This document shows, piece by piece, positions 5,120 through 51,303 of a DNA stretch of 64,000 nt. The DNA comes from Blasia pusilla (Eukaryota). The stretch spans positions 19,034,001 to 19,098,000 of the forward strand of contig CM114271.1 in assembly GCA_050084515.1 (NCBI GenBank), read 5' to 3'. Under the pieces are notes generated by a model, which made no database searches, was not told the DNA's origin, and worked only from the letters and a program-made list of their open reading frames with translations. Numbering within the stretch: the stretch's first letter is position 1; each line of letters starts with the position of its first letter. A program made the translations under genes and the position numbers.

Positions 5120-6132
5120 TATCGTGCACCTACTCCTCTTGGAAGTCAATCTCAGATGTTGTGGAAGCGTACGTTAAGTAGGTCACGTTGACTCTATCGA
5201 TCTGCATCCAAACACACTCTCATTAGTATTTGTTTGAGTCAACCATCCTTCCAACTCCCCGAGTTCTCAACTCGTGCCATTCATCAAGATCAACAGATCC
5301 AACTACTCACGTCCCAACACGGGAAAGTCTTCCTAAACTTGGGATAGACTTTTTGGATAGTCCAGACATCTAAACTAGCAATCACAAGTGTCCAATGGAC
5401 CTTGCATGAATCCCTAATCGCCCAAGAATTGAGTCACGGAGTGGAATCTAAGGGTGATGTCCAAAATTTACTCCCTTGGACTTGGCTTGGGTTCATATCC
5501 TAACGCCAACCTCTCGATCCATTCCGTGCCTTTGTTTCGCCCCGTGGCTCCCCAGAGTGGAGTTCAAGTCCCAAGCACCCTTGGAGACCCACCCCCTTAT
5601 ATATACTTCTGAGTTTCTCCGACCTCCCCCTACCTTTGGGAAAGTCCTCTTGGACCGCTCCTTTTGGCCCTTAATCCAACTTTCTTTGCGATAGTTTTTA
5701 GGCAGTTTTTCGGTCTCTACTCATGCCTTTATCAAGATATTTAGTGCGTTGGAAGATGATTTTCCTAAGCTTTCCAATGCCATCTTACTTGTCCCAAACG
5801 CATGTTGGGTTTGGCCGTTATGATCTAAAATAATGGGCAGCAAAGAACCTCTTGGCATGAGGCGGCGGAGCTATGGTCTTGCTTGCCTTGTGTGTGTAAC
5901 CCAAGCCTCTCATTAAGAGAGTGGGTTTGTTTTGATATTGAGAGAGACATGCGAGAGTGCACACATGTGAGAACTATGGTGTGAGATGGTGTAGAGAGAT
6001 TGGATCTTACTTTATTTTGGTACTTCTTGTCTCGTTGTTTGAATGCCATGAGTTAGCATGGGATCGTGCGTATTTGTGTGTGTGTTTGGTGATAGCAATG
6101 TATGTTGTGTAGCGATGTGTATGCGCACGATA
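5120..6132 (+). mobile_element. Degenerate solo LTR, same family as 41435-42473
   Basis: Ends TATCGTGCAC...GCGCACGATA are decayed TGTCGTGCGC/GCGCACGACA. It aligns by eye with 41435-42473 (GGAAGCGT.CGTT.AGTAGGTCACG, GATCTGCATCCAAACAC, GTGCGTTGGAAG..CTTACTTGTCCC). No clean TSD. Confidence 0.7.
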
Positions 6133-21839: not shown

Positions 21840-22098
21840 TAAGGTTGCACAAAAATTAACAAGTCCAACCATGTCCACGTACATGCCCAGCCCGCACGGT
21901 CGCACTTGAGCCCGCCGTGCAAACTTGGGTTGAGGGAGCTCGGGTATGCTTGGAAGCGAACAAGTCCGTCCCATGGACTGAATCTTTTGGACATGTCCAT
22001 CAACTCCATCCCATGAGCTTTGGGCGAGCTCCGGAACAGGCTCACGTGCGGGCCGCGGGTACATGGGCCCGTACGGACTTTGTCTATGTGCAACCCTA
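21840..22098. mobile_element. hAT-type MITE
   Basis: TIRs TAAGGTTGCAC / GTGCAACCCTA; TSD CCTAAGAG/TCTAAGAG (7/8). Confidence 0.88.
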
Positions 22099-22109
22099 TC
22101 TAAGAGGCT

Positions 22110-22588
22110 TGTCACATCTGAGTATCCGATAAGCCGAGATCTATTGTGGATAGGGCGTAGGAGCCAGCGGACTATCTTGAATGTAACTTTTTCCCACAGT
22201 ATCGGATGAGGTTGAGGATAGGTATATTGTGTCAGGAACGTCGTTTTTGCTAACGTTCATGTTGAGGTCTTTCACAGTCGGGTGACTTGTTGACCAGGTC
22301 ACCCGCCCCTGGTAACCTGTGCGCGCAGGTTACCAAGGGGATAGCTATTTTTAAGGGAAGAGCCTTTTGGCTCTTCCCAACCCTATATAAGAGAGGAAGA
22401 TGACTTTCCTAAGCCATCTTTCTCATGTTGGGCCGTCGGAGCACTTCTCTTGTATGTGTGTGAGATAGGACTAGGATGCTAGCGTCCGGATTCCTTGATA
22501 GCACAGGGTGGACGAGGCTCGATATGCTGATGTAAATTGAGGAGTGGAGTTTTAGGGTGTGCCATTTTTACTACTCTTTATTTTTACA
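22110..22588 (+). repeat. 5' LTR (segment B) of the Gypsy element
   Basis: TGTCACA...TTTTTACA; TATATAA at 22384-22390; homologous to 29639-30118 and 33335-33814. Confidence 0.88.
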
Positions 22589-22599
22589 TGAGAAAGATG
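22586..22599 (+). promoter_or_regulatory. Putative self-priming primer-binding site
   Basis: ACATGAGAAAGATG is the exact reverse complement of CATCTTTCTCATGT at 22415-22428, which begins ~31 nt after the start of the LTR TATA box. Confidence 0.6.
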
Positions 22600-24395
22600 T
22601 CAGGGGGCTGGTGGGAATTTATTGTTTGCGGGTAGGCTAGTGAGTTGCCTTGTTCGGGAGCCTAGGAGATGCGTGTGTTAGCCATTTTTCTGTTCGGAAG
22701 GGCGTGGGCGGAAGCGCTGTCCGTTTTTCTCAGATTTTTCTGGTGCAGATTGTCGAAGGAGAGCAGCAGGGTGTAAAAGGAAGTAAGCTTCCTTGGGAAT
22801 CTGTAGGAATGTTGGGAAATAGAGAGAAACTAGTTTTTAGGGCTTGCAGCCGCCGGGGGGCTGTTAAGTAAGGCGGTTAGGTCATAGCTGCCTAGTTGAT
22901 ACGTACGTACACGGCCAAGGTAGAGTGCGGGCGATTTTGGGTAGATCACGGGGGAGAATTGGGTGCAGCCGCACATAGTCAAGTCGCACAAAGGGAGGGA
23001 TGGGCCCCGCATAGGGCCGCGTGCCCCTACAGGGTCACGGCTCCATAGGGAGCCGTGCACATGTAGCTAAAGGAACAAGGCCGCGTCAGGCAGTAGGCGT
23101 GTAGGGGTCCGGAAGGAGTGAAGTGGGGAGGACACAGAGGCTCATAGGGAGCCGCGCACCCTGAAAGAAGGAAGGAAGGAGGTACGAGAGGAGCCATTAT
23201 GGCTCCTAGATAAGGGGGGGGTAGGGGCCATTATGGGCCCAAAATAGCTGGAATGCAGTTAGGGGAGGGCTGACAGCGTGAGGAGCCAAGCAGCAGTATA
23301 GCGCAACGTGCCCAAAGGAGAGTCGAACGGGGAGAGAACAAGGCCGGCCTCATAGGGCCGCGGGACTTCAACGGGAGTGAAGGGAGGGAGAGCTCTCCAT
23401 AGGGACTAGTGTGCAAGAGGTGAAGGAAACGGCACGAGGCGAGGACGCTCGGCTAGCAAAGAACGGGGTTGGAATTCATGAAGATAAGACGTCCACGCCC
23501 CCCTTATCTAGGAGCGGCTACCCCGTGGTTAACGGGGTAGCCGCATACACGTGGAGACTAGGTGGCTTGGCTACGTGGTAAGATGCTGACGTGGTGAGAG
23601 GGACATTTGGTTGCTGGGCTTACCACGTAGAGACCAGACGTGGAGTTAGGAGAAAAGAACTTGGTGGGGCAGGAGTTACATGGTTGGGCGGATGTGGTAG
23701 GTGGTTACCCAGGTCAGAGAATGGATGTTGCACTCATGTCGTTATGACTACAATCGAGATGGTTGTTTATACAAACAGTTTTCGGGGGAGAGTTGACGAT
23801 TGAGTGTTCGTGCGCATGATGCTGACGGGTTGTTCGCATCTATTGACGGGAGGATCGACGTGTTGGTCGAGGAGAATGTTGTGTTGGGGAGGTTGTCATA
23901 CCACATGGAGGAGTGAGTGCTGATGATACGTAGGTTGGAGGGCGTGATCAGATTACCCATTCTAGTCCCTTTTCCCGCACTTGTCGTGTATGATTGAGAG
24001 TGCTGGGTATCGGGTAGTAGCTGGTGCTAGGTGGGTGCAGTGATGGTGACGAGTGTAGATTATTTTCATGTGTAGCATGTTGGTGGATATACGGCAGTTT
24101 CCGCGTAGGGGCCGCATGTATGACCCGAGAGTATCGCTAGGTTAGGTAAGTCAGTTGGGAGGCTCATGGTGAGCCCGAGTGTTGAGTGTGCGTGAGGCCA
24201 GGTGTGTCATCACGGGATTGACATTAGCATAGGTGAGCTAGTGAGGCATGTGGGAGACTCTCGGTGAGTCTGAGTGCTTGAGCCGGTGAGACAAGGTTTG
24301 TCATCACGGCGTTCTTCCAAGGTTCGGAAGAACGGGGTAGTGCGAGCAGTGGTAGTGGTGTGACATGGAGTGGAGTGAGATACCGAGGGGTTACC

Positions 24396-25870
24396 AATGA
24401 GGAGCTCCCTCGACATCCATCCGTGACTGGATCGTCATCATTGGACACTGGGTCTGGTGACGAGATCACCGACAGAGACAGTAGTACTTGGCAGGAGATG
24501 GACGACATGGGCCATCGGGGCATGCGTTGATGTGGTGCAGTGGGCACCATCGACTTAGATGATTTCATCCAGGAGTTCGACATATGGTGCGACTTCCACG
24601 AGATACGGACCCCGACACGGTTCAACCCTTTCATGGCATGGAAGGGGTTGTTCCAGCACTTGGAGGGTCCTATGATGGATGACTACATGCAGTTTCGATC
24701 ACTATATTTAGTAGAGATCGATGCTTGGAAGATGTATTAGGCTCCAGGGTATGTGTCCACTAGTGGTCGTGAGGCATATGATGGGATCATGAGAGGAGAG
24801 AGACCCACACCATCAGCCGGGAGACTAGATGGAGAGGAGGGTAGTGAGACAGACGATGTGGCAAAGACCTCTGGTGGTAGAGGGCCACCCAGCTTCAGCC
24901 CCACGAGTGGAGTTCTTCTGACAGTTGGGGAAGAGCTACCATGGTGTACGCACCGATAAGTTGAAGAGTCTACAGGATTTTCAGCGACGATCGGGTGAGA
25001 CTTTGAGAGAGGCATTCACGCGCACGAGGAGGCTGATCATTGCTACGTATGGAGTGACTGAGGCGCAATCAATCTAGTATTGGTATGGGGTTCTGGACCA
25101 AGAACTACGGAGGAGAGTCCGAGATGTGGTGCTGATTCACACAGCGAAGCCCACATTGAAGGTGGTCTTTGAGTTGTTTGAGCGTATTGAGCTCAACATG
25201 AGTGAGGAGCAGGTAGTGACCGTTGGATTTTCTCGAGAGTCGACGGGTCCACGAGCGACGCTGACCCCACAGGTGCCACAACAAGCACTAGTACCACAGG
25301 AGCGGGCTGGTGTGCCCAGAGAGCAGGTCGTGTATTGTGAGCCTATGAGGCAATGACCCGTACCTACAGATGTTGCCCAACATGGACCGATGTGGTCTTG
25401 TTGGACGTGTGGAGGGGCCCATGGGCAGAGAGACTGCCCACATCATGGGAGAGGACCACGAGTGCCTCCGATTGCTCAGGAGCCACAAAGGATGGCTCCA
25501 CCACACCATCAGTGTGACCATTGCCACAGATATGGTCACACTAGGGATAGATATTTTGACCTTCGCCGAGGGGCACTTCTAGAGATAGGCCGAGGGCCTG
25601 GGGTCGGTCGTCTTGGAGGAGGTCGGGGAGTTCTTCCTGGACTTGGTGGTAGAGGACCACCATCAGCCAGAGGAGATGGAGCAGGAGTACCAAAGCCGGC
25701 ACTTCTCTCACGCATTGATCAGTTGGAGCAGAGGATTGCTGCCATGATGATGATGCAACTTAGGGAAGGCACGGAGCTGCGAGCACCTAGTGTGACTCTT
25801 GCTTCTACCTCTTACCCTGACCCGGGTGAGGATCTTGCTAGTATGGGGTTTATGTGTAGTGCAGCCTAGG
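24396..25870 (+). pseudogene. gag: Gypsy gag with frameshifts and stops
   Basis: DLDDFIQEFDIWCD..LFQHLEG capsid-like segment; knuckles CWTCGGAHGQRDC and CDHCHRYGHTRDRY (degenerate). Start approximate. Confidence 0.8.
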
Positions 25871-26357
25871 TTGAGGTAGCTGCAGTGGTGACTCGGGGTG
25901 CTGCGAGAGGCACCGAGCCATCGAGAGGTGGAGTTGAGATTGACCCACCAGAGGGGACCGATGGGCGGCAGGCCAGGGTTCCACAGTTGTTCACATTGTC
26001 GGAGGCACTACACACACCATCATTGGTGCCTCGACGACTAGCGGTGCCTACAGTTCAGGCACCTACGTCAACATCACGAAAAGTTGGAGTGATAGCTCCT
26101 ATGCCGGCTCGAGTGGAGTCAGAGTCGACCATAGCGTTGGAGGTGGCCACCAGAGTGAGTCAGACTCCGCTATTTTCCGCCATAGAGTTGGAGACGTTGG
26201 GAGTTGGACCAGCTGAGGTGTTCCGGTTGGCCGCCACATTGTGTAAGCGTGGAGAGATGACAGCTTCTTGTTCGGAGGTAGTTGAGGAGGTGGTGGACTT
26301 GCCCTCAGAGCCGGTGCTTGGTTCCCCACAGAGTCATGGCATGCGGAGGCGGCGAAG

Positions 26358-26860
26358 TTGGTAGATATGCCAGCTCGACCGGCCATAGAGCGAGCAGTGG
26401 TGACACCTGGAGTAGTGTTACTAGATAACCAAGCTGGAGTATTTCGCTTGGTTAGTCCGACAGGGACGGTATACCACCCGCAACCCGTCCTACTTGATTC
26501 GGGAGCGCAACCCTTGATGTTAGGGAAGGCGGCGTGTTTAGCGTTGGGGTTACAGAAGGCCGACATTGAGCCTTGTCCCTTCCAGATACAGACCTTGATT
26601 GGGGACGTATCACCCACTCAGTATATGACTCAACAGGAGATTGTTGTCAGAGTCCAGCCAGAGCATGCGACGGATAGTGCTATGGTGCGCACACGTGCAA
26701 TTACGACACCAATTGAGTCGTACGATGTGTTGGTGGGGAGTACAGTGTTATATCCCCTAGGATTCATCCTTGACTTATGGGAGGAGACCGTTGCTTATCG
26801 GCCAAGATGGCGGTCAGGTGACGGCCGGATGAGTCAGTTACCCGTGCAGTTTGCGGGACG
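26358..26860 (+). pseudogene. Retroviral-type aspartic protease domain
   Basis: VLLDSGAQPLML (Asp codon 26496) and downstream YDVLVG motif. Confidence 0.85.
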
Positions 26861-27092
26861 AGGTGGTCGATCACGAGGCGAGTCTGTGACCACGTTGGCG
26901 GCTTTCACAAGTAGTGTTAGCTGGCCAGGAGAGTTGTTGGAGGGGAACGCACATACGGAGGATGTCCCAGTAGCGGATAGTCCCACGGAGATACAGGCCA
27001 TGGCGGGTGTCTCTTCCCATGTTGGCGAGGCCTCTTCACCATTGTGGGGTACGACTTGTACCCCATTGTGGCTAACATTGTGGGGTATGAAT

Positions 27093-27685
27093 ATTTTGGG
27101 GGATAGATCGGTTCGGAGAGATTGCTTGTATCAGTAGCGGTTCTTACCATTTGGGTTGAAGAACGCGCCTGTAGAGTTTCAGAGAGTGATGGATAGGATT
27201 CTGGCTGGCTTGGATTTTGTACGATGTTACATAAATGATATTCTTATCTTCAGTTCCACGGTTGAGGAGCATGAGCGACACTTGGAGGAGGTATTTCGGC
27301 GATTTTAGTTACATGGATTGAAGTTACATCCAGGCAAGTGCAGATTCTTTCACGAGCTGATTGAGTACTTGGGACACACCATATACCCGAGTGGGTTAGG
27401 CGTTCAGCAGACGAAGGTAGAGGCTATTGTGCAGATTCCACGCCCTACAGATGTGAGTCGAGTCCGATCATTTCTTGGACTGGCGAACTTCTATCAACGG
27501 TATGTCAAGGGTTTTAGTTGGATCGCAAAGTCTTTGACCTTGTTGACGAGACTTGATCAGGTTTGGTTGTGGGGAGATGATCAGGAGCGAGCATTTCAGG
27601 AGCTCAAGGACAGATTGACGTCCTCACCCATTTTACAGATACCCGTTAGGGGTCGCCCATTCCAGTTACATACGGATTGGAGCAT
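27093..27685 (+). pseudogene. pol: Reverse transcriptase C-terminal half and RNase H start (copy 1)
   Basis: FWGID..DCLYQ*RFLPFGLKNAPVEFQRVMD...CYINDILIFS (YIDD decayed), KLHPGKC, EYLGH, FLGLANFY, FQLHTDWS. Confidence 0.92.
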
Positions 27686-27711
27686 TTAGGGTTTAGGGTT
27701 TAGGGTTTAGG
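27685..27711 (+). repeat. Telomeric repeat insertion (TTTAGGG)3+TTTAGG at a rearrangement junction
   Basis: Perfect plant telomere repeats interrupt RNase H right after ...GATTGGAGCA. Confidence 0.92.
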
Positions 27712-27737
27712 CTGCCCTCAACTCCCCCACCCTAAAG

Positions 27738-29423
27738 CCACATCTCACAATGGATGCTTATTTGGGCTCAGGGAGTCGATCTCAGGTGGTGACACGGGAT
27801 GATACACCACCATTGGCCATGGCCAATAGGGTGGGGGAGTTGAGGGCAGCCTTACCTACGTTGGTGAGATGACACTTGGAGGAGGTATTTCGGCGATTGC
27901 AGTTACATGGACTGAAGTTACATCCAGGCAAGTGCAGATTCTTTCACGAGCTGATTGAGTACTTGGGACACACCATATACCCGAGTGGGTTAGGAGTTTA
28001 GCAAACAAAGGTAGAGGCTATTGTGCAGATTCCACGCCCTACAGATGTGAGTCAAGTCCGAGCGTTTATTGGCCTAGCGAACTTCTATCGACGGTATGTC
28101 AAGGGTTCTAGTTGGATCGCAAAGTCTTTGACCTTGTTGACGAGACTTGATCAGGTTTGGTTGTGGGGAGATGATCAGGAGCGAGCATTTCACGAGCTCA
28201 AGGACAGTTGACGCGTCCTCACCCATTTTCTGAGATACCGTTAGGGGTCGCCCATTCCAGTTACATACGGATTGGAGCATGTTGGGTCTAGGAGCAGTGC
28301 TTACTCAGAGGGATGACGAGGAGAGGGAGTTCGTTGTGGCTTACGTGAGCCGATCGAAAAACATTGCAGAGGGGAAGTACAGCTCCTACGAGGGAGAGTG
28401 CTTGGCTGCAATGTGGGCCGTGGCACATTTTAGGTGCTATTTATTCGGCAACCCTTTCACACTTATCATTGATCATCAGCCGTTAAGGTGGTTGATGGAG
28501 TCCGACAAGCTTACGGGAAAGCTTGCTAGGTGGGCTCTATTACTACAAGAGTATGAGTTTGAGATGGTTCATAGGCCAGGTCGGCTGAACCAGGATGCGG
28601 ATGGGTTGAGTCGTAACCCATGTCCGAGTTAGAGAGATGACACAGGAGCTCGATGGCACGGAGAGAGTGATGAGGAGATGGTGCCCGGGTGGCATGCATC
28701 TGGCTATCTTTGTTGGTTGACTATGGTAGGTCAGCCACAGGTGAAGACTCCAGTGGTGGGATTGGATGATGAGTCTTTGGATCTGGAGGTTAGTGAGGAG
28801 GCGACAGGTGGTCGTGATATCCATGACGACGTGGAGGTTGTGGAGTTCTTGCGCACTGGCGTCATTGCGAGTACAGTGAGTGCTAGGGAGTGGGATCGGA
28901 TCCTACAGAGAGCCAAGAGGGTATGGGGAGATGGTAGGATACGAGTGGTACCTCATCCTTCCCAGCGAGCACGTGTAGTGCGACATGCCCATGAGGAGTT
29001 GGGACATTTTGGAGTAAAGCGTACTTACAGCTTACTCCAGGTTCAGTATTGGTGGCGCGGCATGCATATTGGGGTACAACAGTTTGTGGCCAGATGTATG
29101 GTATGTGACAGAGTGCGAGCATCCTACGTGTGCGCGAGGTATTACCGACCGGAGTCCTCATGTTGGAGGGACGGGATGGTATGGTTTGGAAGGATCATGT
29201 GCGCAATTGTGCGCCATGTCATCTTCTGAACGTAGATGGGACGGTGGATCCGAGCTTGGTAGTGGTACCTGCAGGCTTGAGGTGTATGTTGTGCGGATCT
29301 GCGAGGGGTGCAGCCATCATGTTGGTATGTGATGGTTGTTCTCGAGGGTGGCATATGTCATGTCTGACCCCCCCTCTTGATGTTGTTCCCACGGGACGAT
29401 GGATGTGTCCGAGATGTGTATAG
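27738..29423 (+). pseudogene. pol: pol copy 2: DNMT tail, RT end, RNase H, integrase Zn finger and PHD; integrase core deleted
   Basis: Near-identical to 30601-33120 but lacks the rve core (junction ~29124) and has a further short deletion at ~28920. PHD CMLC...CDGC...WH..C...WMCPRC is intact at 29283-29423. Confidence 0.9.
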
Positions 29424-29500
29424 GGTAGTAGGTCATGTCAGAGAGATGTGATATTTTCTATCTGGAGTTAGGGGGATCCAACTGCCAGCTAGGGGGCGGT

Positions 29501-30260
29501 TGTGTGATCTCTATGTATATGTATGAGTTGATTTTTGTACATGTGTGGATCGACCCGTGTGTGGGGAAGATCGGTGTTTTGTGGTGTAGATGTGACGAGC
29601 GATGTATGTTGTGTAGCGATATGTATGCGCACGATAGCTGTCACATCTAAGTAGCCGATAGGCCGAGATCTATCGTGGATAGGGCGTAGGAGCCAGCGGA
29701 CTATCTTGAGTGTAACTTTGTCCCACGATGTGGGATGAGGTTGAGATAGGTCCATTGTGTCAGGAATTTTGTTTCTGACAACTTTCATGTTGAGGTCTTT
29801 CATAGCCGGGTGACTTGTTGACCAGGTCACGCGCCCCTAGTAACTTGTGCGCGTCAGGTTACCAAGGGAAGGGCTATTTTTAGGGGAAGAGCCTTTTGGC
29901 TCCTCCCAACCCTATATAAGAGAGGAAGATGGCTTTCCTAAGCCATCTTTCTCATGTTGGGCCGTTGGAGCACCTCCCTTGTATGTGTGCGAGCTAGGAC
30001 TAGGGTGCTAGCGTCCGGATTCCTTGATAGCACAAGGTGGACGAGGCTCGATATGCCGATGTAGAATGAGGAGTGGAGTTTTAGGCCGGGTCTGCCGTTT
30101 TTACTACTCTTTATTTTTGTGAGTTGTGTGATCTCCATATATATGTATGAGTTGATTTTTGTACATGTTTTGATCGATCCGTGTGTGGGGAAGATCGGTG
30201 TTGTGTGGTGTAGATGTGACGAGCGATGTATGTTGTGTAGCGATATGTATGCGCACGACA
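29501..30260 (+). repeat. Internal LTR region, A-B-A layout (A 29501-29636, B 29639-30118, A 30125-30260)
   Basis: Direct comparison of the repeated segments; follows PPT-like AGGGGGCGGT. Confidence 0.9.
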
Positions 30261-30261
30261 G

Positions 30262-30735
30262 ATTGCTGGAGGGCCATGTTAGGGTCATTCGTCAGCTGGC
30301 CGAGGACTTGGATTGCAGGATCCGAGGTCAGGGATGTTTTGGGAGATGTTGAAAGTAGTACGACACTTGCAGGAGAGTCGGACATGTTCTCCACCATACA
30401 TTTTAGAGAATGTTCCGTGGTTGGGAGACACTCGTGCAAGTGTGATGCCAAGTGTGCATCAGGTGAGGTCTTGGTTGGGACCTGCTATGTTGTTAGATGC
30501 AGCGAGAGTTGGGTCACGTGCCCATCGTCTACGATTATGGTGGACGAATCTGATACCATCAGAGGTATTGAGTCGAGCATACGATGGAGTCGAGAGAGTA
30601 CCACATCTCACAATGGATGCTATTTTGGGCTCAGGGAGTCGATCTCAGGTGGTGACACGGGATGATATACCACCATTGGCCATGGCCAATAGGGTGGGGG
30701 AGTTGAGGGCAGCCTTACCTACGTTGGTGAGATGA
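30262..30735 (+). pseudogene. DNMT3-like cytosine-5 DNA methyltransferase fragment (motifs IV-VIII) inside the retrotransposon
   Basis: One frame reads IAGGPC*GHSSAGRGLGLQDPRSGMFWE (motifs IV/V; stop at 30280-30282 is CAG>TAG), YILENV (motif VI), and PAMLLDAARVGSRAHRLRLWWTNLIP (motifs VII/VIII). Confidence 0.88.
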
Positions 30736-33120
30736 CACTTGGAGGAGGTATTTCGGTGATTGCAGTTACATGGACTGAAGTTACATCCAGGCAAGTGCAG
30801 ATTCTTTCACGAGCTGATTGAGTACTTGGGACACACCATATACCCGAGTGGGTTAGGAGTTTAGCAAACAAAGGTAGAGGCTATTGCGTAGATTCCACGC
30901 CCTACAGATGTGAGTCAAGTCCGAGCGTTTATTGGCCTAGCGAACTTCTATCGACGGTATGTCAAGGTTTTTAGTTGGATCGCAAAGTCTTTGACCTTGT
31001 TGACAAGACTTGATCAGGTTTGGTTGTGGGGAGATGATCAAGAGCGAGCATTTCAGGAGCTCAAGGACATGTTGACGTCCTCACCCATTTTACAGATACC
31101 CGTTAGGGGTCGCCCATTCCAGTTACATACGGATTGGAGCATGTTGGGTCTAGGAGCAGTGCTTACTCAAAGGGATGACGAGGAGAGGGAGTTCGTTGTG
31201 GCTTACGTGAGCCGATCGAACAACATTGCAGAGGGGAAGTACAGCTCCTACGAGGGAGAGTGCTTGGCTGCAATGTGGGCCGTGGCACATTTTAGGTGCT
31301 ATTTATTCGGCAACCCTTTCACACTTATCATTGATCATCAGCCGTTAAGGTGGTTGATGGAGTCCGACAAGCTTACGGGAAAGCTTGCTAGGTGGGCTCT
31401 ATTACTATAGGAGTATGAGTTTGAGGTGGTTCATAGGCCAGGTCGGCTGAACCAAGATGCGGATGGGTTGAGTCGTAACCCATGTCCGAGTTAGAGAGAC
31501 GACACAGGAGCTCGATGGCACGGAGAGAGTGATGAGGAGATGGTGCCCGGGTGGCATGCATCTGGCTATCTTTGTTGGTTGACTATGGTAGGTCAGACAC
31601 AGGTGATGACTCCAGTGTTGGGGTTGGATGATGAGTCTTTGGATCCCGAGGTCAGTGAGGAGGCGACAAGTGGTCGTGATATCCATGAAGACGTGGAGGT
31701 TGTGGAGTTCTTGCGCACTTGCGTCATAGCGAGCACAATGAGTGTTACGGAGCGGGATCGGATCCTACAGCAAGCCAGGAGGTTCAGGTGGGAGGGGACT
31801 CATATTTTGCGGGTATGGGGAGATGGTAGGATACGAGTGGTACCTCATCCTTCCTAGCAAGCACGTGTAGTGCGACATGCCCATGAGGAGTTGGGATATT
31901 TTGGAGTAAAGCGTACTCACAGGCTTACTCTAGGTTCAGTATTGGTGGCGCGGCATGCATATTGGGGTACAACAATTTGTGGCCAGATGTATGGTATGTG
32001 ATAGAGTGCGAGCATCTTTCAATGTTCCCACTCCACAGTTACATCCTTTTCCGATTATGGGTTTAGGTTATTGGTGGAGTTTAGACTTTGCGGGACCTTT
32101 GCCATTGACGGGGAGTCATCATAGGTACGTGTTGATCATGGTGGAGCATTTCTCCAAGTGGATAGAGTTGGTGGCACTATCGGATAAGGCGAGCGAGGGA
32201 ACAACTTATGGGTTTCTAGGTCGTGTGCTTAGTCACTTTGGTGCACCGGTGGAGTTTTGACTGACTAGGGTACCGAGTTCAAGGGAGAGTTTCAGACCTT
32301 GTGTGATCAGGCGTTGATAGATCACCGTACCACGTCCAGAGATCATTCTGAGGCGGATGGGTTGGCGGAGAGAGTGGTACAAACGATGAAGAGAGGGTTG
32401 CGCAGGTATGGCTTGCAATGGGGACTGTTGAGGGAGTGGGACCTACAGTTGCCATGGTTGGCTATGGGTTATCGCTTTAGAAGGCAGGCATCTTTGGCAT
32501 CATTTTCACCTTACTTTTTGCTCTTTGGGAGAGAACCAGATTTACCTGCAGCCATTCAACGCAACATGGCGGAGGTGTTAGATCTTGATGATCCAGATGT
32601 GTGGGTACAAGCATGTTCTCAGAGGGCGGAGGTTTTTCGTAGAGTTATGCCTATGGCCTTCAAGAACTTAGCTATTGCTCACCATAGAGATACATTGAGG
32701 TATGCAACCATTCGTGGAGGAGGTTATCCTCCACGGATTAGGAGGTTTCATCTTAAAGATTACGTGTATTTAGAGCAGGCGGCACCCATGACGCTAGATG
32801 TCAGTGCAGGACGCACGATCCTACATGTGTGCGAGGTATTACCGACCGAAGTCCTCATGTTGGAGGAACGGGATGGTATGGTTTGGAAGGATCATGTGCG
32901 CAATTGTGCGCCATGTCATCTGCCAAACGTAGATGGGACAGTGGATCTGAGCTTGGAAGTGGTACCTGCAGGTTTGAAGTGTATATTGTGCGGATCTGCG
33001 AGGGATGCAACCACCATGTTGGTATGTGATGGTTGTTCTCGAGGGTGGCATATGTCATGTTTGACCCCCCCTCTTGATGTTGTTCCCACGGGATGATGGA
33101 TGTATCCGAGATGTGTATAG
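30736..33120 (+). pseudogene. pol: pol copy 3: RT end, RNase H, integrase (HHCC and rve DDE core) and C-terminal PHD finger, with multiple stops
   Basis: HEELG..G...WWRGM...C..CDR; WSLDFAGPLP, VEHFSKW, LTD*GTEF, ADGLAERVVQTMK; PHD from 32980 with a TGA stop at 33094. Confidence 0.93.
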
Positions 33121-33198
33121 GGTAGTAGGTCATGTCAGAGAGATGTAATATTTTCTATGTGGGGTTGGGGGAATCCAACCGGCAGCTAGGGGGGCGGT

Positions 33199-33952
33199 TG
33201 TGTGATCCACGTATATGTATGAGTTTATTTTTGTACATGTGTGGGTCGACCCGTGTGTGGGGAAGATCAATGTTGTGTGGTGTAGATATGACCAGCGATG
33301 TATGTTGTATAGCGATATGTATGTGCACGACAACTGTCATATCTGAGTAGCCGATAGGCCGAGATCTATCATGGATAGGGCTTAGGAGCGAGAGGACTAT
33401 CTTGAGTGTAACTTTCTCCCACAGTATCGGATAGGTTGAGGATAGGTCCATTGTGTCAAGAACGTCATTTCTGACAACTTTCATGTTGAGGTCTTTCACA
33501 GCCGGGTGACTTGTTGACTAGGTCACCCGCCCCCTTGGTAACCTGTGCGCGCAGGTTACCAAGGGGATAGCTAATTTTAAGGGAAGAGCCTTTTGGCTCT
33601 TCCCAACCCTATATAAGAGAAGAAGATGGCTTCTTAAGCCATCTTTCTCATGTTAGGCCATTGGAGCACCTCTCTTGTATGTGTGTGAGATAGGACTAGG
33701 GTGCTAGCGTCCGGATTCTTTGATAGCACAGGGTGGACGAGGCTCGATATGGTGATGTAGATTGAGGAGTGGAGTTTTAGGCCGGGTGTGCTATTTTTAC
33801 TACTCTCTATTTTTGTTGTGTGATCTTCATGTATATGTATGAATTGATTTTTGTACATGTGTGGATCAACCCGTGTGTGGGGAAGATCGGTGTTGTGTGG
33901 TGTAGATGTGACCAGCGATGTATGTTGTGTAGCGATATGTTTGCACACGACA
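33199..33952 (+). repeat. 3' LTR region, A-B-A layout (A 33199-33332, B 33335-33814, A 33817-33952)
   Basis: Same organisation as 29501-30260; ends ...GCACACGACA. Confidence 0.9.
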
Positions 33953-36227
33953 GTCTTGTGACAACATTATGATTCTTCATAGATCTTAACCATCATGAGC
34001 ATTTTACACCTTTGGTAATGAGTTGTTATGAGATGAGAAATTTTGGATGCCATTTTGCAATATGCTGTTGGTGCGGTGAGCCAAAATTTATGTGTTTCTT
34101 TTGTATTTCATCTCAATTGATCCCACTTAACTTGACTTAAGTTGAAGTGTTTTGGACTTGACTATAATATGACCCTAACCGTTAAGAAATATTGAAGCCC
34201 TTGCAAAATATTTTGGAAGAGTGAAGATTAACGACATGCAATAAATGATGTATAGTAAGATTATTTTGTAGGTCATCATGCTAATTTTCCAATTTAATTC
34301 AAGTTTTTGAAAATTTGCATTGAGGCCTTTTAAACTAGGCTAAATATTTTTTGAGAGCTTTATGAAGAAATTCATCATGAAATTATTCCAAAACTCTTAA
34401 GCACGTGTGACCCATACAATCCAAAATAATATATTATGAAACATCATGGAGATCCTCGTAGATAGTGTATTTGTCTTTTTTTAGAAGATGAACATAAGGA
34501 AGGATTAAAAGATTTAATGTAAAAGTGGGTTTATGTAATATTATTCAGCTCATTAACCTAGTATTAGCTTGGAATTATATAAAAAATCACATTCAAGTGC
34601 CCTCTATAGTAAAAGAAGTACCCTCATACTTTACGAATTCTCTACTGAAAATAATAAAATTCATTTCCCACGGACCCTGTAGTAGTCTCTAATAACAACT
34701 CCAAATCCATTGATGAAACTAAATTTCTTTGGACTTAGAGGAAACATAAGTAATTAGGAGAAAAGTAGTTGAATGTGTTATTATTTTGTTTGTACCATAT
34801 TATATAATCGACATTGCAAAACTACTAGGGAGAGTGAGAAATAATTGAATAGTGAAAAAATATTACCGGGTGAAAACTGATTAGGTGTTCAAAGGAATCC
34901 ATCTTTATTAGTTTATTATACAAATAAAAGAGTTAGTGATATTTGTGTCAGAATCTCAATTACTTTACTATCCCTACATTTTATTATCATTTCTCCTTTT
35001 GACACGTCTTTTTTAAGCCTATAAAATCATTTTTTTAAAGTTAATAGGATCATTCAAATTCAATTGAATAAGTAAAAAATATTTAATGGAATATCATAAT
35101 ATTTTGGCATCTAATTATTTTTCCAAAAGTGTAAAAATTAAACTATAAATACCATACGAAACAATTTAACTAATGTAATGACATATTTATAAGATCCAGA
35201 ACCACATGTAATTGAATCGTTTCATTCTTAAAACGTAAGAAAAAAGTTGGGAGTGGAGGTGGATACCTCGAATGCCAGATTTCCTTTAATTTCGTGTCAT
35301 CGTTCGAATGCACATATTATTATTACATCAGAATAAAATAAAAACGAAATCACCGTTTGTTCTCCACGTGAATTCTTCCCCTAATATAGTCCGTGTTCAG
35401 CGTCTATTCGGGCTCTAAAACCCCAGATTCTGCCTAGCTTATTTTTGGGGTTTTAGACCCCGCCAAAAGGTGGGGTGGAGGACTAGGTAGAGGAACTGAC
35501 GCAAAAGCCCTCGCGAGGCGAGGGCAGGTTCACGAAAGTCGCTGGTGATGTTGACTCGCGTCAACGCGCTAGATATGGCCAGTTGATGATGACGGAAAAC
35601 TGCAGATTTTATCGAGCAAGGGCGTTGGCTCTACGGGTACTTTGTGCATGGAAGAATGGATGAAAGGGAGAAGTTCACGGAGCGGAGGGCGTCGCACGTC
35701 GGCAGTTAATTATGCCGTGCATTTTGCAGAGCACGAGTTTCAGCACGTGCATGCTCGAGTCTCCACTGACGAATTCCCAGTTTCCCGCAGCTCCTTGACC
35801 AAAAACACGCCTCTTTCTGGACAATCAAAAGTCCGCTTCGCATGATTAGCTTTCGGGATGAACGAGTACCCGTCGAGCGCGCAGTCGATCTACAAGAGTC
35901 ACGAGACGGAGAGCAACTGGACTGTCACCATCCGCGTACTGTGCGCACGACCTGTTCGGATTCGAATCATCGCTCCGGACTCCGGATCGGCGGGTCAACC
36001 GTCACATGGAAGCATTCCATTGCCTCATGTAGAGTTCGGGCGTCTCAAGATCCTCGCCGGACCGTAACGTTCGTGTTTCCGGAGCCGAGTCGATCGCGAT
36101 CGAGTTCAGTGTACGCTGTGGGATCCAGTTCAGAACGATGCAACGGAGACGGGATCTGAACTCGTCGTCTTTGGTCGGGCCCTGGCCCTTGTGGGAATGA
36201 GAGGATGACTGACGCCTCGCGTGAGTG

Positions 36228-36572
36228 CGTCCAGGTGTTTAGGGTGTGTGCGCGTCACTCTGAATGGAAAGCCCGCTGCAAGAGAATCCCTCGGACCCTC
36301 ACGATAGCCGTAGAACTGGCCAGTAGACGTGGAGAACTGGCTGACAAATCCACTCCCTCCTCTTTTATGGCTGCTTGGATGCGTCCAGGTGTGTGCGCGT
36401 TGCTCTGAATGGAAAGCCCGCTGCAAGAGAATCCCTCGGACCCTCACGATAGCCGTAGAACTGGACAGTAGACGTGGAGAACTGGCTGACAAATCCACTC
36501 CATCCTCTTCCATGGCTGCTTGGATGCCGATGACTGACAAACCACTCCCTCCTCTTCCATGGCTGCTTGGAT
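36228..36572 (+). repeat. Recent local tandem duplication (~150-bp unit x2 plus a partial ~40-bp third copy)
   Basis: CTCTGAATGGAAAGCCCGCTGCAAGAGAATCCCTCGGACC...ATGGCTGCTTGGATGC is repeated almost exactly. Confidence 0.9.
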
Positions 36573-49263: not shown

Positions 49264-50524
49264 CATTCTCGCATTCCAGCAGGCGTATGTGAACCGCAAG
49301 AGAACGAGACGCGCAACGGACCGATCCGTTGCGTCTCCCGAACGCCTTTACGCACATCTATCTCCTCTTTCACAAAGTCCTGCTGCAAACGTCGTGGGCC
49401 TAGAACCGCACGCCGTTCTGTCGTATACGAACTATTCAGGAGCACATGAGTGCATCCCGTTACCGTAACTCCTGATGATGTCTCTCAGTCGTCGATCCCA
49501 GCGATCCCACGGAACAGTACAGGAGTATGATACGGCAATGCTAATGATAGTATTCCCGGTTTCCGGCCTCGCATTTGGCCCTGGTCGGTGCTAACACTGC
49601 TAATGAAAGGATCTTACATCTATTCTTTTCTTGGGGGTGAAACTATAAGTATGCATTACCGATGGTAACCCGTGACACAGCGTTTTGGGGAGCAAACGTT
49701 GCTCCGGCCGTCGTTCATAATCGTGTACGAAAGCGGCATCGTGATGGTGCTTTTAGTTTTTCTACTGGACTTTTTTATGAACGAGTATGCGGCCGGCACT
49801 GCTGTAAATAGGTAGGGACGTTATTAAATGGAATGTGGGGTATTTTGGTAGAATAGTAATGAGTGTTTATGTGGAACGGTGGAGTCCACGGTCGAGTTCG
49901 AGTGGATTGTGAAGCATTGTAGTCGGAATTTCGGAAATGCACGTAAGGAAAAATGGTGATGCATTTCAGATTAGAGTAACATATTATTATTATACAAAGT
50001 TACATGATAGATTTTTGAGTACCAAAACCTGTAATATGGTGGGCAAGGAACGAAAAGGAGAATAGAGAATACCATTATATCATATACACAGGATGATTTC
50101 CTTAAGGCCCAAAAATCGACGGGCATTGGGATGAGATTTTATAGATGCTCGCACTGGTAAGAAAACTTAAACCCGCTCAGGACCATGCAGGGAGAAGGCA
50201 AAATGTGGCCCGGCGGTAATGTAAAGCAACAGATAAAAATGTCTACAATTTGAGGCGCCATTGCATTGACAAGTAGTGCATACGATGATCTGACTGAGAG
50301 GATACACTACAAGTCTCAAGAAAAGTGAGAAAGGTTGTCTTTGATCGTGTGGGCTCCAACCACGGGAATCGATGTGGGCTTGAATGAAGGGTGCGAGCCA
50401 GGATGCGGGCCATAGTCGCGACGCGGGCTGCAAGCGGGCACGACTCAGGCCTGACGTACGGGCCTCGCGCGGGTTGGTTGGAGCTCGCATGCGGGCTAGG
50501 GCGGGCTAGGGCCAGGCAGGCCTG

Positions 50525-51303
50525 GTGAAGGCCAAGGGGTTGTGGGCAATGTGTTTCTATGAATATGGAATACCATTCAACGTAGTACGACAAGATGCTT
50601 TCAAACAAGCAATGTTGGCAATAACAAAGATGAAGGGTTACTCAGATCCTAGTTACAATTTGTTACGCACCACCCTACTTGAGAAACATATGGGGAAGGT
50701 GAAGGAAAAGGTGGATGGCATATTGAACAATTTGCGTTTGGGGGCCTCGATCATAACGGATTCTTGTACCAGTGTGAGGCGGGAGTCTTTAGTGAACATC
50801 ATGGTCTCATGTCCACAAGGTGAGGTCATGATTGAGTCGATAAACACCAAAGGGGAATCCCAAATGGCGGAATGGTTGGGAGGTCACATAGAGAGGACTA
50901 TCATGTGCATCGGTCTAGAGAATGTGTTGCAACTTATGATAGACAATGCTAGCAATGAGCGCGAACAGCAAGGAAACTTATCGAAGCAAAGTTTCCTCAT
51001 AATCTTTGGGGTGGATGCGTATCACATTCTCTTGATCTAGTTTGCGAAGAAAGGGATAAATGGCCTTAGATGGGTAGGACTTTTGCACAAGCTCGTGAGA
51101 TGGTGGTATTTGTGAAGAATAGAACTTGGATGATGGCCAAATTCATGGAAACAAGTCTAGTGAAGAGACGATTGTTGCTTCCTGCAAACACACGTTTTGC
51201 CACTTATTTTATTATGTTGGGACGCATCTTAGAATTGAGGGAGGCGTTCTATGCCATGGTTTCCACCAATGCTTTTAGGGAGTATTTCAATGGCAGGGAC
51301 ACA
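50525..51303 (+). pseudogene. hAT transposase N-terminal half (DUF659-type)
   Basis: CFYEYGIPFNVV, PSYNLLRTTLL, SIITDS, IDNASN, C.SH.LDL (frameshifted), PANTRFAT. Confidence 0.88.

Follow-up and report, generated by a model that had tools for sequence, protein, structure and literature searches.

Transposons are normally targets of DNA methylation, and a transposon with a de novo methyltransferase of its own reverses this usual relation. Retrotransposons carrying DNMT domains were described by de Mendoza et al. 2018 (PMC5890265), and an earlier reading of the present DNA, made without database searches (the sequence-only reading), had cited that paper in accordance with its main text. Here we consider a stretch of 64,000 nucleotides from Blasia pusilla (the window; contig CM114271.1 of assembly GCA_050084515.1, positions 19,034,001 to 19,098,000), in which the segment at 30262-30735 on the plus strand is very probably a decayed piece of a DNMT3-type cytosine-5 methyltransferase (C5-MTase), belonging to a Ty3/Gypsy family that holds this domain as a standing module of its pol polyprotein and is present in about a thousand copies in the source genome. 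We show what the domain is, how the element that holds it is built, how many copies exist, how they have decayed and that the domain was under constraint over the long term, and weigh what it may do.

The closest described system is KnitGypsy-Dnmt3 of Klebsormidium nitens (PMC5890265). The likeness rests on its published description, according to which it is also of Ty3/Gypsy type, has an intronless, unrearranged DNMT3-type domain in the pol open reading frame (ORF), is bounded by repeats arranged as A-coding-B-A-B, and lives in a host of the streptophyte lineage. That paper gives A-coding-B-A-B as the arrangement of DIRS elements and ascribes 'the same' repeat structure, together with a Gypsy domain set, to KnitGypsy-Dnmt3. 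The differences lie in the host, which is a charophyte alga there and, judging by the nearest named relatives, liverworts and Sphagnum mosses here, and in the PHD finger of the present family, a term absent from that main text. SymbioDIRS-Dnmt3 of Symbiodinium likewise combines a DNMT3-type domain in pol, A-coding-B-A-B repeats and two domain orders, but, as described in the main text, it encodes a tyrosine recombinase in a separate ORF (PMC5890265), while the present family has a DDE integrase with an H2C2 zinc domain. EpiLTRs, or DAM-bearing retrotransposons, are again long terminal repeat (LTR) type elements with a DNA methyltransferase and chromatin-reader modules, but in the preprint text consulted the DNMT of these elements falls in with DNMT4, an adenine methyltransferase and a chromodomain are its partners, and 'streptophyte Gypsy-DNMT3' is treated as a separate, earlier case (bioRxiv 10.64898/2026.05.21.726589).

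No description of a Gypsy-DNMT3 element from a liverwort or moss was found in the full-text literature, including the parts consulted of PMC12344493, PMC11982613, PMC6453930 and bioRxiv 10.64898/2026.05.21.726589, although some may be shown in Supplementary Figs 13-14 of PMC5890265 or Supplementary Fig. S3 of PMC12344493. The main text of PMC5890265 does not contain the words 'Marchantia', 'Physcomitrella', 'Sphagnum' or 'moss', and a literature search on PHD-finger integrases returned nothing relevant. The kind of element is already known (de Mendoza et al. 2018), and its bryophyte-type member is new.

The methyltransferase fragment and its class

Frame 1 of 30262-30735 (+) reads IAGGPC, a stop, GHSSAGRGLGLQDPRSGMFWE, further on YILENV, then AHRLRLWWTNLIP, and finally ALPTLVR followed by another stop, which agrees letter for letter with the IAGGPC and YILENV of the sequence-only reading. 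The 157 codons retained comprise motifs IV to VIII and the stretch before motif IX, namely motif IV (GPC, then TAG), motif VI (ENV) and motif VIII (RLR), followed by the target-recognition stretch as far as ALPTLV. The TAG lies at 30280-30282, immediately 3' of the Pro-Cys codons; of the seven close relatives covering that site, six have Q and one has K, which fits the CAG>TAG change suggested earlier.

The translation, with its first stop read as X, was used as query P0001. The proposed membership among the C5-MTases was borne out by Pfam, in which DNA_methylase (PF00145) matched with 28.1 bits (E=1.7e-6; curated cut-off 22), fragment residues 1-58 aligning on profile positions 66-118 of 324. 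A phmmer search of 1,835,955,588 representative proteins gave 708 matches at E<=1e-3, of which 249 reach E<=1e-10 (best 1.1e-51), far beyond chance; in most of them the alignment spans the entire query, residues 1-156, from which it follows that the stretch after motif VIII also belongs to the conserved domain. The fragment is 65-69% identical to Marchantia and Calypogeia gene models, and its GPC, ENV and RLRLWW align with the same motifs of DNMT3A and M.HaeIII. As a lead only, the nearest clusters in the ESM Atlas are DNA_methylase clusters of Streptophyta and Chlorophyta.

A single-sequence PDB search with the 157-aa fragment gave only weak matches, the best being M.HaeIII at E=0.013, and the class of the domain was therefore addressed with profiles built from the family. 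A profile of 16 family domains, compared with all PDB chains, matched DNMT3A (5e-21), DNMT3C (2e-19) and DNMT3B (3e-18) ahead of DRM (4e-11), M.HhaI (2e-8) and DNMT2 (~1), and no DNMT1 match appeared at E<=1. The same ranking was obtained with a profile of the window's own clade (3.6e-9, 1.6e-6 and 7.6e-5), so that the earlier suggestion of a DNMT3-like enzyme holds at both levels. The block AHRLRLWWTNL of the fragment aligned on its DNMT3A counterpart, as did DAAxVGSxAHRxRxWWTNL of the family, and the C-terminal ERExxG...LG block of the family aligned on DNMT3A motifs IX-X. In 73 full-length family domains, motifs I (FGG), IV (CQ), VI (EN), VIII (AHRxR), IX (ERE) and X follow one another in unrearranged order, and alignments A1, A4 and A5 of relatives do likewise, unlike DRM, which is circularly permuted; the window fragment itself shows only the order IV-VI-VIII. 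As far as sequence comparison can assign it, the family domain is of DNMT3 type, since DNMT1, DNMT2, DRM and the bacterial enzymes all stand further from it than DNMT3 does. It shares with host DNMT3A/3B/3C and plant DRM the catalytic motifs and the AHRxRxxWxNL block, with DNMT3 as the best profile match, and differs from the host DNMT3 enzymes in lying between protease and reverse transcriptase, without PWWP or ADD domains according to Pfam. Compared with DNMT3A, its stretch between motifs VIII and IX is also longer, as seen from alignment gaps.

A module of the pol polyprotein

Across the relatives, the DNMT3-type domain is a standing module of a Ty3/Gypsy-type pol polyprotein in the order gag-protease (PR)-DNMT3-reverse transcriptase (RT)-RNaseH-integrase (INT)-PHD. 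The order PR-DNMT-RT-RH-INT-PHD, which the sequence-only reading had deduced for an intact element, exists as one ORF in P0225, a relative of 2358 aa with 43% identity to the window fragment, in which Pfam places PR at residues 663-711, DNMT at 953-1137, RVT at 1443-1596, RNaseH at 1660-1789, INT at 1925-2090 and PHD at 2300-2344. It recurs in Marchantia models and in metagenome loci. In the Marchantia protein P0168 the DNMT domain (460-529) is followed by RVT (833-919) and then RNaseH, and in P0192 a protease precedes the DNMT domain; PF00145 scores of the relatives range from 25 to 46 bits. The Ty3/Gypsy order of pol, a DDE integrase with an H2C2 zinc domain and a CCHC gag are seen when Pfam matches of relatives and of window ORFs are taken together with tblastn alignments. 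No phage-integrase family, which would point to the tyrosine recombinase of DIRS or Ngaro elements, was found in the polyproteins, where rve and Integrase_H2C2 are present instead; neither PWWP nor ADD was reported in them by Pfam. Chromoviruses are Gypsy elements with a chromodomain at the C-terminus of the integrase, and the present family resembles them in carrying a reader module at this place, but here the reader is a PHD finger, and a DNA methyltransferase is present in addition.

In liverworts, relatives were found in Calypogeia fissa (69%), in at least 10 gene models of Marchantia polymorpha (54-73%), in M. paleacea and in Riccia sorocarpa, in mosses in Sphagnum troendelagicum, S. tenellum and S. 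fallax, and at greater distance in the chlorophytes Scenedesmus and Chlamydomonas eustigma. The nearest matches are all retroelement proteins and not PWWP/ADD-bearing host enzymes. A metagenome scan with the close-clade alignment A4 gave 107 relatives, with 80 loci retained, while in a scan with Marchantia P0168 as query none of 91 pattern matches was confirmed. Of 16 long metagenome loci that were mapped, nine are collinear from gag to PHD over ~7 kb, the remaining ones being cut by contig ends or rearranged.

The position of the domain was surveyed in 234 proteins, 230 of which matched at least one of six domain queries. Among these, DNMT lies upstream of RT in 37 and between RNase H and INT in 93, stands alone in 96, and has no match in four. 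In a FastTree phylogeny of 141 DNMT domains (27 rows of the before-RT type including the window, 70 of the RNaseH-INT type, 44 unassigned), which is unrooted and made with a quick method, the two pol positions need one change only, and the window fragment falls with Marchantia, Calypogeia and metagenome rows into an 18-row set with support 100.

The abundance of the family in the source genome was estimated from whole-genome reads of the source organism (run X16, about 1/100 of the run) placed on 29000-35500 at a likeness of at least 85%. The summed depth reaches 990-1060 in the two DNMT bins, 1278-1590 in the RT-RNaseH bins and 1125-1379 in the integrase bins (904 at 32689-32905), against an average of ~1.0 in seven flank bins beyond 33990. 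A DNMT depth of ~1000 against a flank depth of ~1 implies that copies of the DNMT segment number about a thousand, the flank value stemming from few reads and this figure therefore being an order of magnitude only. The DNMT segment has about 70-80% of the depth of RT. Behind 30731, 856 reads depart from the window sequence with one common continuation (agreement 0.93), which in frame is the next conserved block of the family (SFPxSHAFR), so that most genomic copies must lack the deletion that ends the domain in the window. Some reads at 30731 do not depart (856 do, against a depth of ~1000), so the deleted variant may itself be multi-copy.

The wider bearing of the family lies in its hosts. 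The only described Gypsy case is that of Klebsormidium, and the abundance in the source genome together with the bryophyte gene models moves the question into land plants. In Marchantia, knock-outs, methylomes and transposition assays are routine, and should intact Marchantia copies prove active, it would become possible to test in a genetic model plant what a DNA methyltransferase does for the transposon that bears it. Models of Sphagnum, Marchantia, Calypogeia and Riccia named 'DNA (cytosine-5-)-methyltransferase' or 'hypothetical protein' include pieces of this retroelement family; with dozens of such bryophyte models, counts of host DNMT genes can be inflated.

Decay, function and origin of the domain

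Several results weigh against a standing and working enzyme module. The window copies cannot encode an enzyme: in addition to the stop after the catalytic Cys, motif I (FxGxG) and motifs IX-X are absent from the copy, and tblastn with five family polyproteins found neither motifs I-III and IX-X nor any further DNMT piece in the 64 kb. With the stops and a broken RT box, no copy in the window is functional, as the sequence-only reading had concluded, and these dead copies are of value only as a pointer to the family. Among the metagenome copies, none of the 39 that cover the entire domain is free of stops (1 to 12 each, with the frame mostly kept), and only three ORFs of at least 600 aa occur on the element strand across the 80 loci. 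Of the 53 stops in 15 gap-free copies, 38 go back to four one-base transitions, C>T or G>A (CGA>TGA 14, CAG>TAG 11, CAA>TAA 9, TGG>TAG 4), a spectrum as expected for the decay of methylated DNA. The ratio of nonsynonymous to synonymous substitution rates (dN/dS) among 15 close metagenome copies has a median of 0.63 (range 0.39-1.10; 102 of 105 pairs, three near-identical ones dropped), which indicates that recent divergence is mostly neutral decay.

The RNA reads add to this. In runs X18-X20, from the same organism, the depth is 12-46 on the RT-INT bins at 30736-32688 and 1.3-5.5 on the DNMT bins, so that the DNMT bins are covered about tenfold less, although their DNA depth is only about a quarter lower. 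Most of these reads fall short of 90% likeness and cover the stretch only in part (1040 of 1332 in X18), with only one to three per run at least 99% alike; they stem from relatives, and no sign of transcription of DNMT-bearing copies like those of the window was seen in these runs. Perhaps the relatives that are transcribed have no DNMT segment, or one that is more divergent. First mates in X18-X20 are mostly on the minus strand, which would mean sense transcripts, provided that the libraries were stranded in the usual way. As to the known systems, no K. nitens protein stands among the named matches listed, most rows being nameless, so that this is no evidence of absence; and the K. nitens Gypsy-borne domain, the only one of its type tested, gave no methylation in yeast, a result judged inconclusive by the authors in the main text (PMC5890265).

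Other observations speak for a domain that was maintained during the active life of the lineage. Its catalytic Cys, ENV and RxR block and the FGG that binds S-adenosylmethionine (SAM) are conserved from chlorophytes to bryophytes. When the window fragment is compared with 13 of the 15 close metagenome copies, dN amounts to 0.25-0.30 and dS to 1.6-2.4, and the resulting ratio of ~0.15, although it depends on saturated dS and to that extent counts among the points against, shows together with the conserved residues that the domain was under selection over the long term.

Regarding the mechanism, the enzyme of intact copies would be made within Pol, the domain being in frame with pol in intact relatives, and would travel with RT and integrase. 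It would then methylate the element's own new DNA, whether still cDNA or freshly inserted, and the PHD finger at the C-terminus of the integrase would read histone tails and in this way choose the target. We propose this scheme tentatively and with rather less than even confidence. It is also conceivable, although in our opinion unlikely, that the family-wide module has a role other than DNA methylation, acting on RNA or serving as an idle, DNMT3L-like scaffold that recruits or blocks the host machinery. The negative yeast result for KnitGypsy-Dnmt3 would fit such a role, as would the departure of motif X from its usual form and the ECQ found as motif IV in many members, and RNA methylation was raised by the authors, in the main text, for a LINE-borne DNMT (PMC5890265). 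Yet human DNMT3B was equally negative in yeast, and the DIRS-borne domains of SymbioDIRS-Dnmt3 methylated CG de novo there (main text of PMC5890265), while the catalytic and SAM-binding residues named above are kept family-wide and the canonical PCQ is retained in the clade of the window.

The remaining alternatives concern the origin of the segment. That short motifs in a non-coding frame resemble a methyltransferase by chance has a negligible probability: the two stops in frame and the weak single-sequence structure matches (best E=0.013) could be read in this way, but they are set against the best database match of 1.1e-51, 249 matches at E<=1e-10 over 156 residues and a Pfam score above the curated cut-off. 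Hardly more credible is a one-off capture, in which a single Gypsy copy took up a host DNMT3 fragment and a local duplication gave the second piece. The window by itself, with only two pieces sharing one joint, would fit this, but the read depth of about a thousand on the DNMT segment, the polyproteins with the domain at the same position in Marchantia, Calypogeia, Sphagnum and many further assemblies, and nearest matches that are all retroelement proteins devoid of PWWP/ADD already contradict it; the 708 relatives and the bryophyte gene models likewise run counter to what would have refuted the sequence-only reading, namely a single-copy segment captured from the host. Another doubt attaches to the relation with KnitGypsy-Dnmt3, which was compared by described traits. 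DNMT capture is recurrent in unrelated retroelements, going by the consulted text of PMC5890265 and bioRxiv 10.64898/2026.05.21.726589, and the wider family has two pol positions (37 before RT, 93 between RNaseH and INT), so the two lineages could have gained DNMT3 separately and come to resemble each other by convergence. We see a limited chance of this, since three unusual traits coincide in both (the Gypsy domain set, the DNMT3-type domain in pol and the A-coding-B-A-B repeats), the one change needed in the 141-domain tree speaks for few events, and relatives reaching the chlorophytes Scenedesmus and Chlamydomonas eustigma mark the lineage as old. A decayed piece of a standing pol module thus remains by far the best account of 30262-30735.

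The locus, its terminal repeats and its surroundings

The window holds two dead mosaic copies of the element, head to tail on the plus strand, at 22110-30261 and 30262-33952. Copy 1 has the form L-internal-S-L-S, where L and S denote a long and a short repeat, and starts with the 5' terminal repeat L ('A1') at 22110-22585, which begins with TGTCA and is 90% identical to 29639-30118 and 91% to 33335-33814. It is followed by a gag-like region with CCHC-type knuckles at 24300-26292, broken by stops and frame changes, where tblastn aligns residues 13-569 of Marchantia P0169 to 24525-26292 (42-55%) and residues 26-201 of P0173 to 24300-24902. Cys-His knuckles are discernible in ORF 25357-25869, on which Pfam gave no match. 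The aspartic protease region at 26334-27119 (P0168 residues 93-351, P0169 584-861) contains LLDSGAQ, read in ORF 26286-27137; Pfam gave no match on this ORF, and Asp_protease families stand at the corresponding place in P0192 and P0225. Up to this point, gag and PR are collinear with the Marchantia models.

Directly adjoining PR, with DNMT and the RT fingers missing at that point, is a piece from RT palm to thumb with the start of RNase H at 27120-27698 (P0168 residues 832-1011, 69%; RT_RNaseH_2 match), which has three in-frame stops and at 27228-27239 the catalytic box YIND in place of YxDD, a further sign of decay. Then come a DNMT tail piece, that is, the stretch before motif IX, at 27714-27870 (P0168 residues 575-625; 96-98% identical to 30601-30733) and, fused to it, RT thumb and RNase H at 27871-28935 (P0168 residues 885-1185), with Pfam RT_RNaseH at 118 bits on 28234-28632. 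The zinc-binding part of the integrase and the PHD finger share 28816-29423 (tblastn P0013 residues 1058-1171 and 1435-1534; Pfam PHD 43.7 bits at 29109-29423), the integrase core of ~800 nt being deleted, as visible from the gap against copy 2 in repeats D12 and D6 of the self-comparison. The self-comparison also delimits the 3' end S1-L-S2 (B1-A2-B2), with S1 at 29499-29637, L at 29639-30118 and S2 at 30123-30261.

Copy 2 has no 5' end and begins inside the DNMT domain at 30262, directly after the final base of copy 1. Its DNMT3-type C5-MTase fragment (30262-30735) and the following RT thumb with RNase H (30736-31812; P0168 residues 885-1190, 59%; RT_RNaseH_2 113 bits on 30892-31410) share one reading frame across a deletion joint, interrupted by stops. 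The integrase is represented by its zinc-binding part and DDE core at 31925-32715 (tblastn P0015 residues 1920-2181, 46-49%); on 31934-32260 Pfam gave rve 26.1 bits and Integrase_H2C2 22.3 bits, both under the cut-off because the piece is short. A C-terminal PHD finger follows at 32818-33117 (Pfam PHD 33 bits, residues 238-270 of ORF 32269-33096; 94% identical to 29121-29420), and in the self-comparison the copy closes with S1 at 33197-33332, L at 33335-33814 and S2 at 33815-33952. Throughout 22000-34000 the coding strand of the two copies has a strongly positive GC skew (0.18-0.29); G+C amounts to ~50% there, compared with 35-42% in most neighbouring windows.

The sequence-only reading had noticed that the tail of the DNMT segment recurs at 27738-27870, and 30601-31782 is indeed 96% identical to 27738-28920. 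It had also taken both copies to be joined to the C-terminal part of RT; the joint is present and identical at the DNA level in the two copies, but it is a deletion within a mosaic and not the native boundary of DNMT and RT. In tblastn both copies jump from residue 625 of P0168 to residue 885, with residues 626-884 missing, and this common jump with its identical joint indicates one ancestral deletion, in which DNMT motifs IX-X were lost along with the fingers and palm of RT. Both copies descend from one deleted variant with DNMT fused in frame to the RT thumb, and copy 1 was rearranged further. A nested insertion of copy 1 into copy 2 was considered and rejected, as the missing 5' half of copy 2 would be expected upstream of 22110, where tblastn finds nothing.

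With respect to the terminal repeats, L (476-480 nt, ~90% alike) occurs three times and S (136-139 nt) four times at the positions given. Copy 1 and the metagenome loci L062, L064 and L055 have L alone at the 5' end and S-L-S at the 3' end, with no S-like sequence beside the 5' L in these loci or, on either side, in copy 1; S-L-S forms the 3' end of copy 2 as well. L starts with TGTCA and S terminates with CGACA, and the inner joint of S1 and L2 reads CGACA-NN-TGTCA, like the two outer ends fused around a two-base spacer. Directly upstream of S1 there is a purine run, and inspection by eye recognised no primer-binding site downstream of the 5' L. Target duplications of four bases enclose L-start and S2-end in L064 (AAGG) and L055 (TCTC); that of L062 is ambiguous, and the window composite (GGCT/GTCT) agrees in three of four bases. 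Behind 30260, 1691 genomic reads run into dissimilar sequence (agreement 0.34), which shows that the element truly terminates, on its 3' side, with S2, and the read depth drops from ~470 to ~1 just past the 3' end of copy 2 (33952).

The element is thus bounded not by the two identical LTRs of Ty3/Gypsy elements but by L...S-L-S, that is, A-coding-B-A-B with L as A and S as B. A plain LTR composed of L+S or S+L was rejected, since the 5' end carries L alone in all four elements with both ends examinable; we note that a two-LTR circle with S+L as its LTR, if cut open at the S/L boundary, would have just this genomic form. Gypsy-DNMT3 may be pictured as an old lineage ranging from green algae to bryophytes, made up of DDE-integrase elements with a DNMT3-type writer and a PHD reader that expanded in the genome of a land plant to about a thousand copies and, as L-internal-S-L-S would imply, entered that genome through a site resembling a circle junction, unlike canonical LTR elements. 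Taken as a whole, we consider this picture possible but doubtful.

A match of 72 nt (83%) to the S repeat (29569-29636) is found at 6062-6132, possibly a stray fragment of another copy. Beyond the element, no Rfam family reached the gathering score anywhere within the 64 kb. An ORF of 176 aa at 50510-51040 (+) matches Pfam DUF659 with 67.6 bits, a domain that we associate with hAT-type transposases, so that this ORF is presumably another transposon relic. A unit of 140 nt is present in two tandem copies, 96% alike, at 36243-36527.

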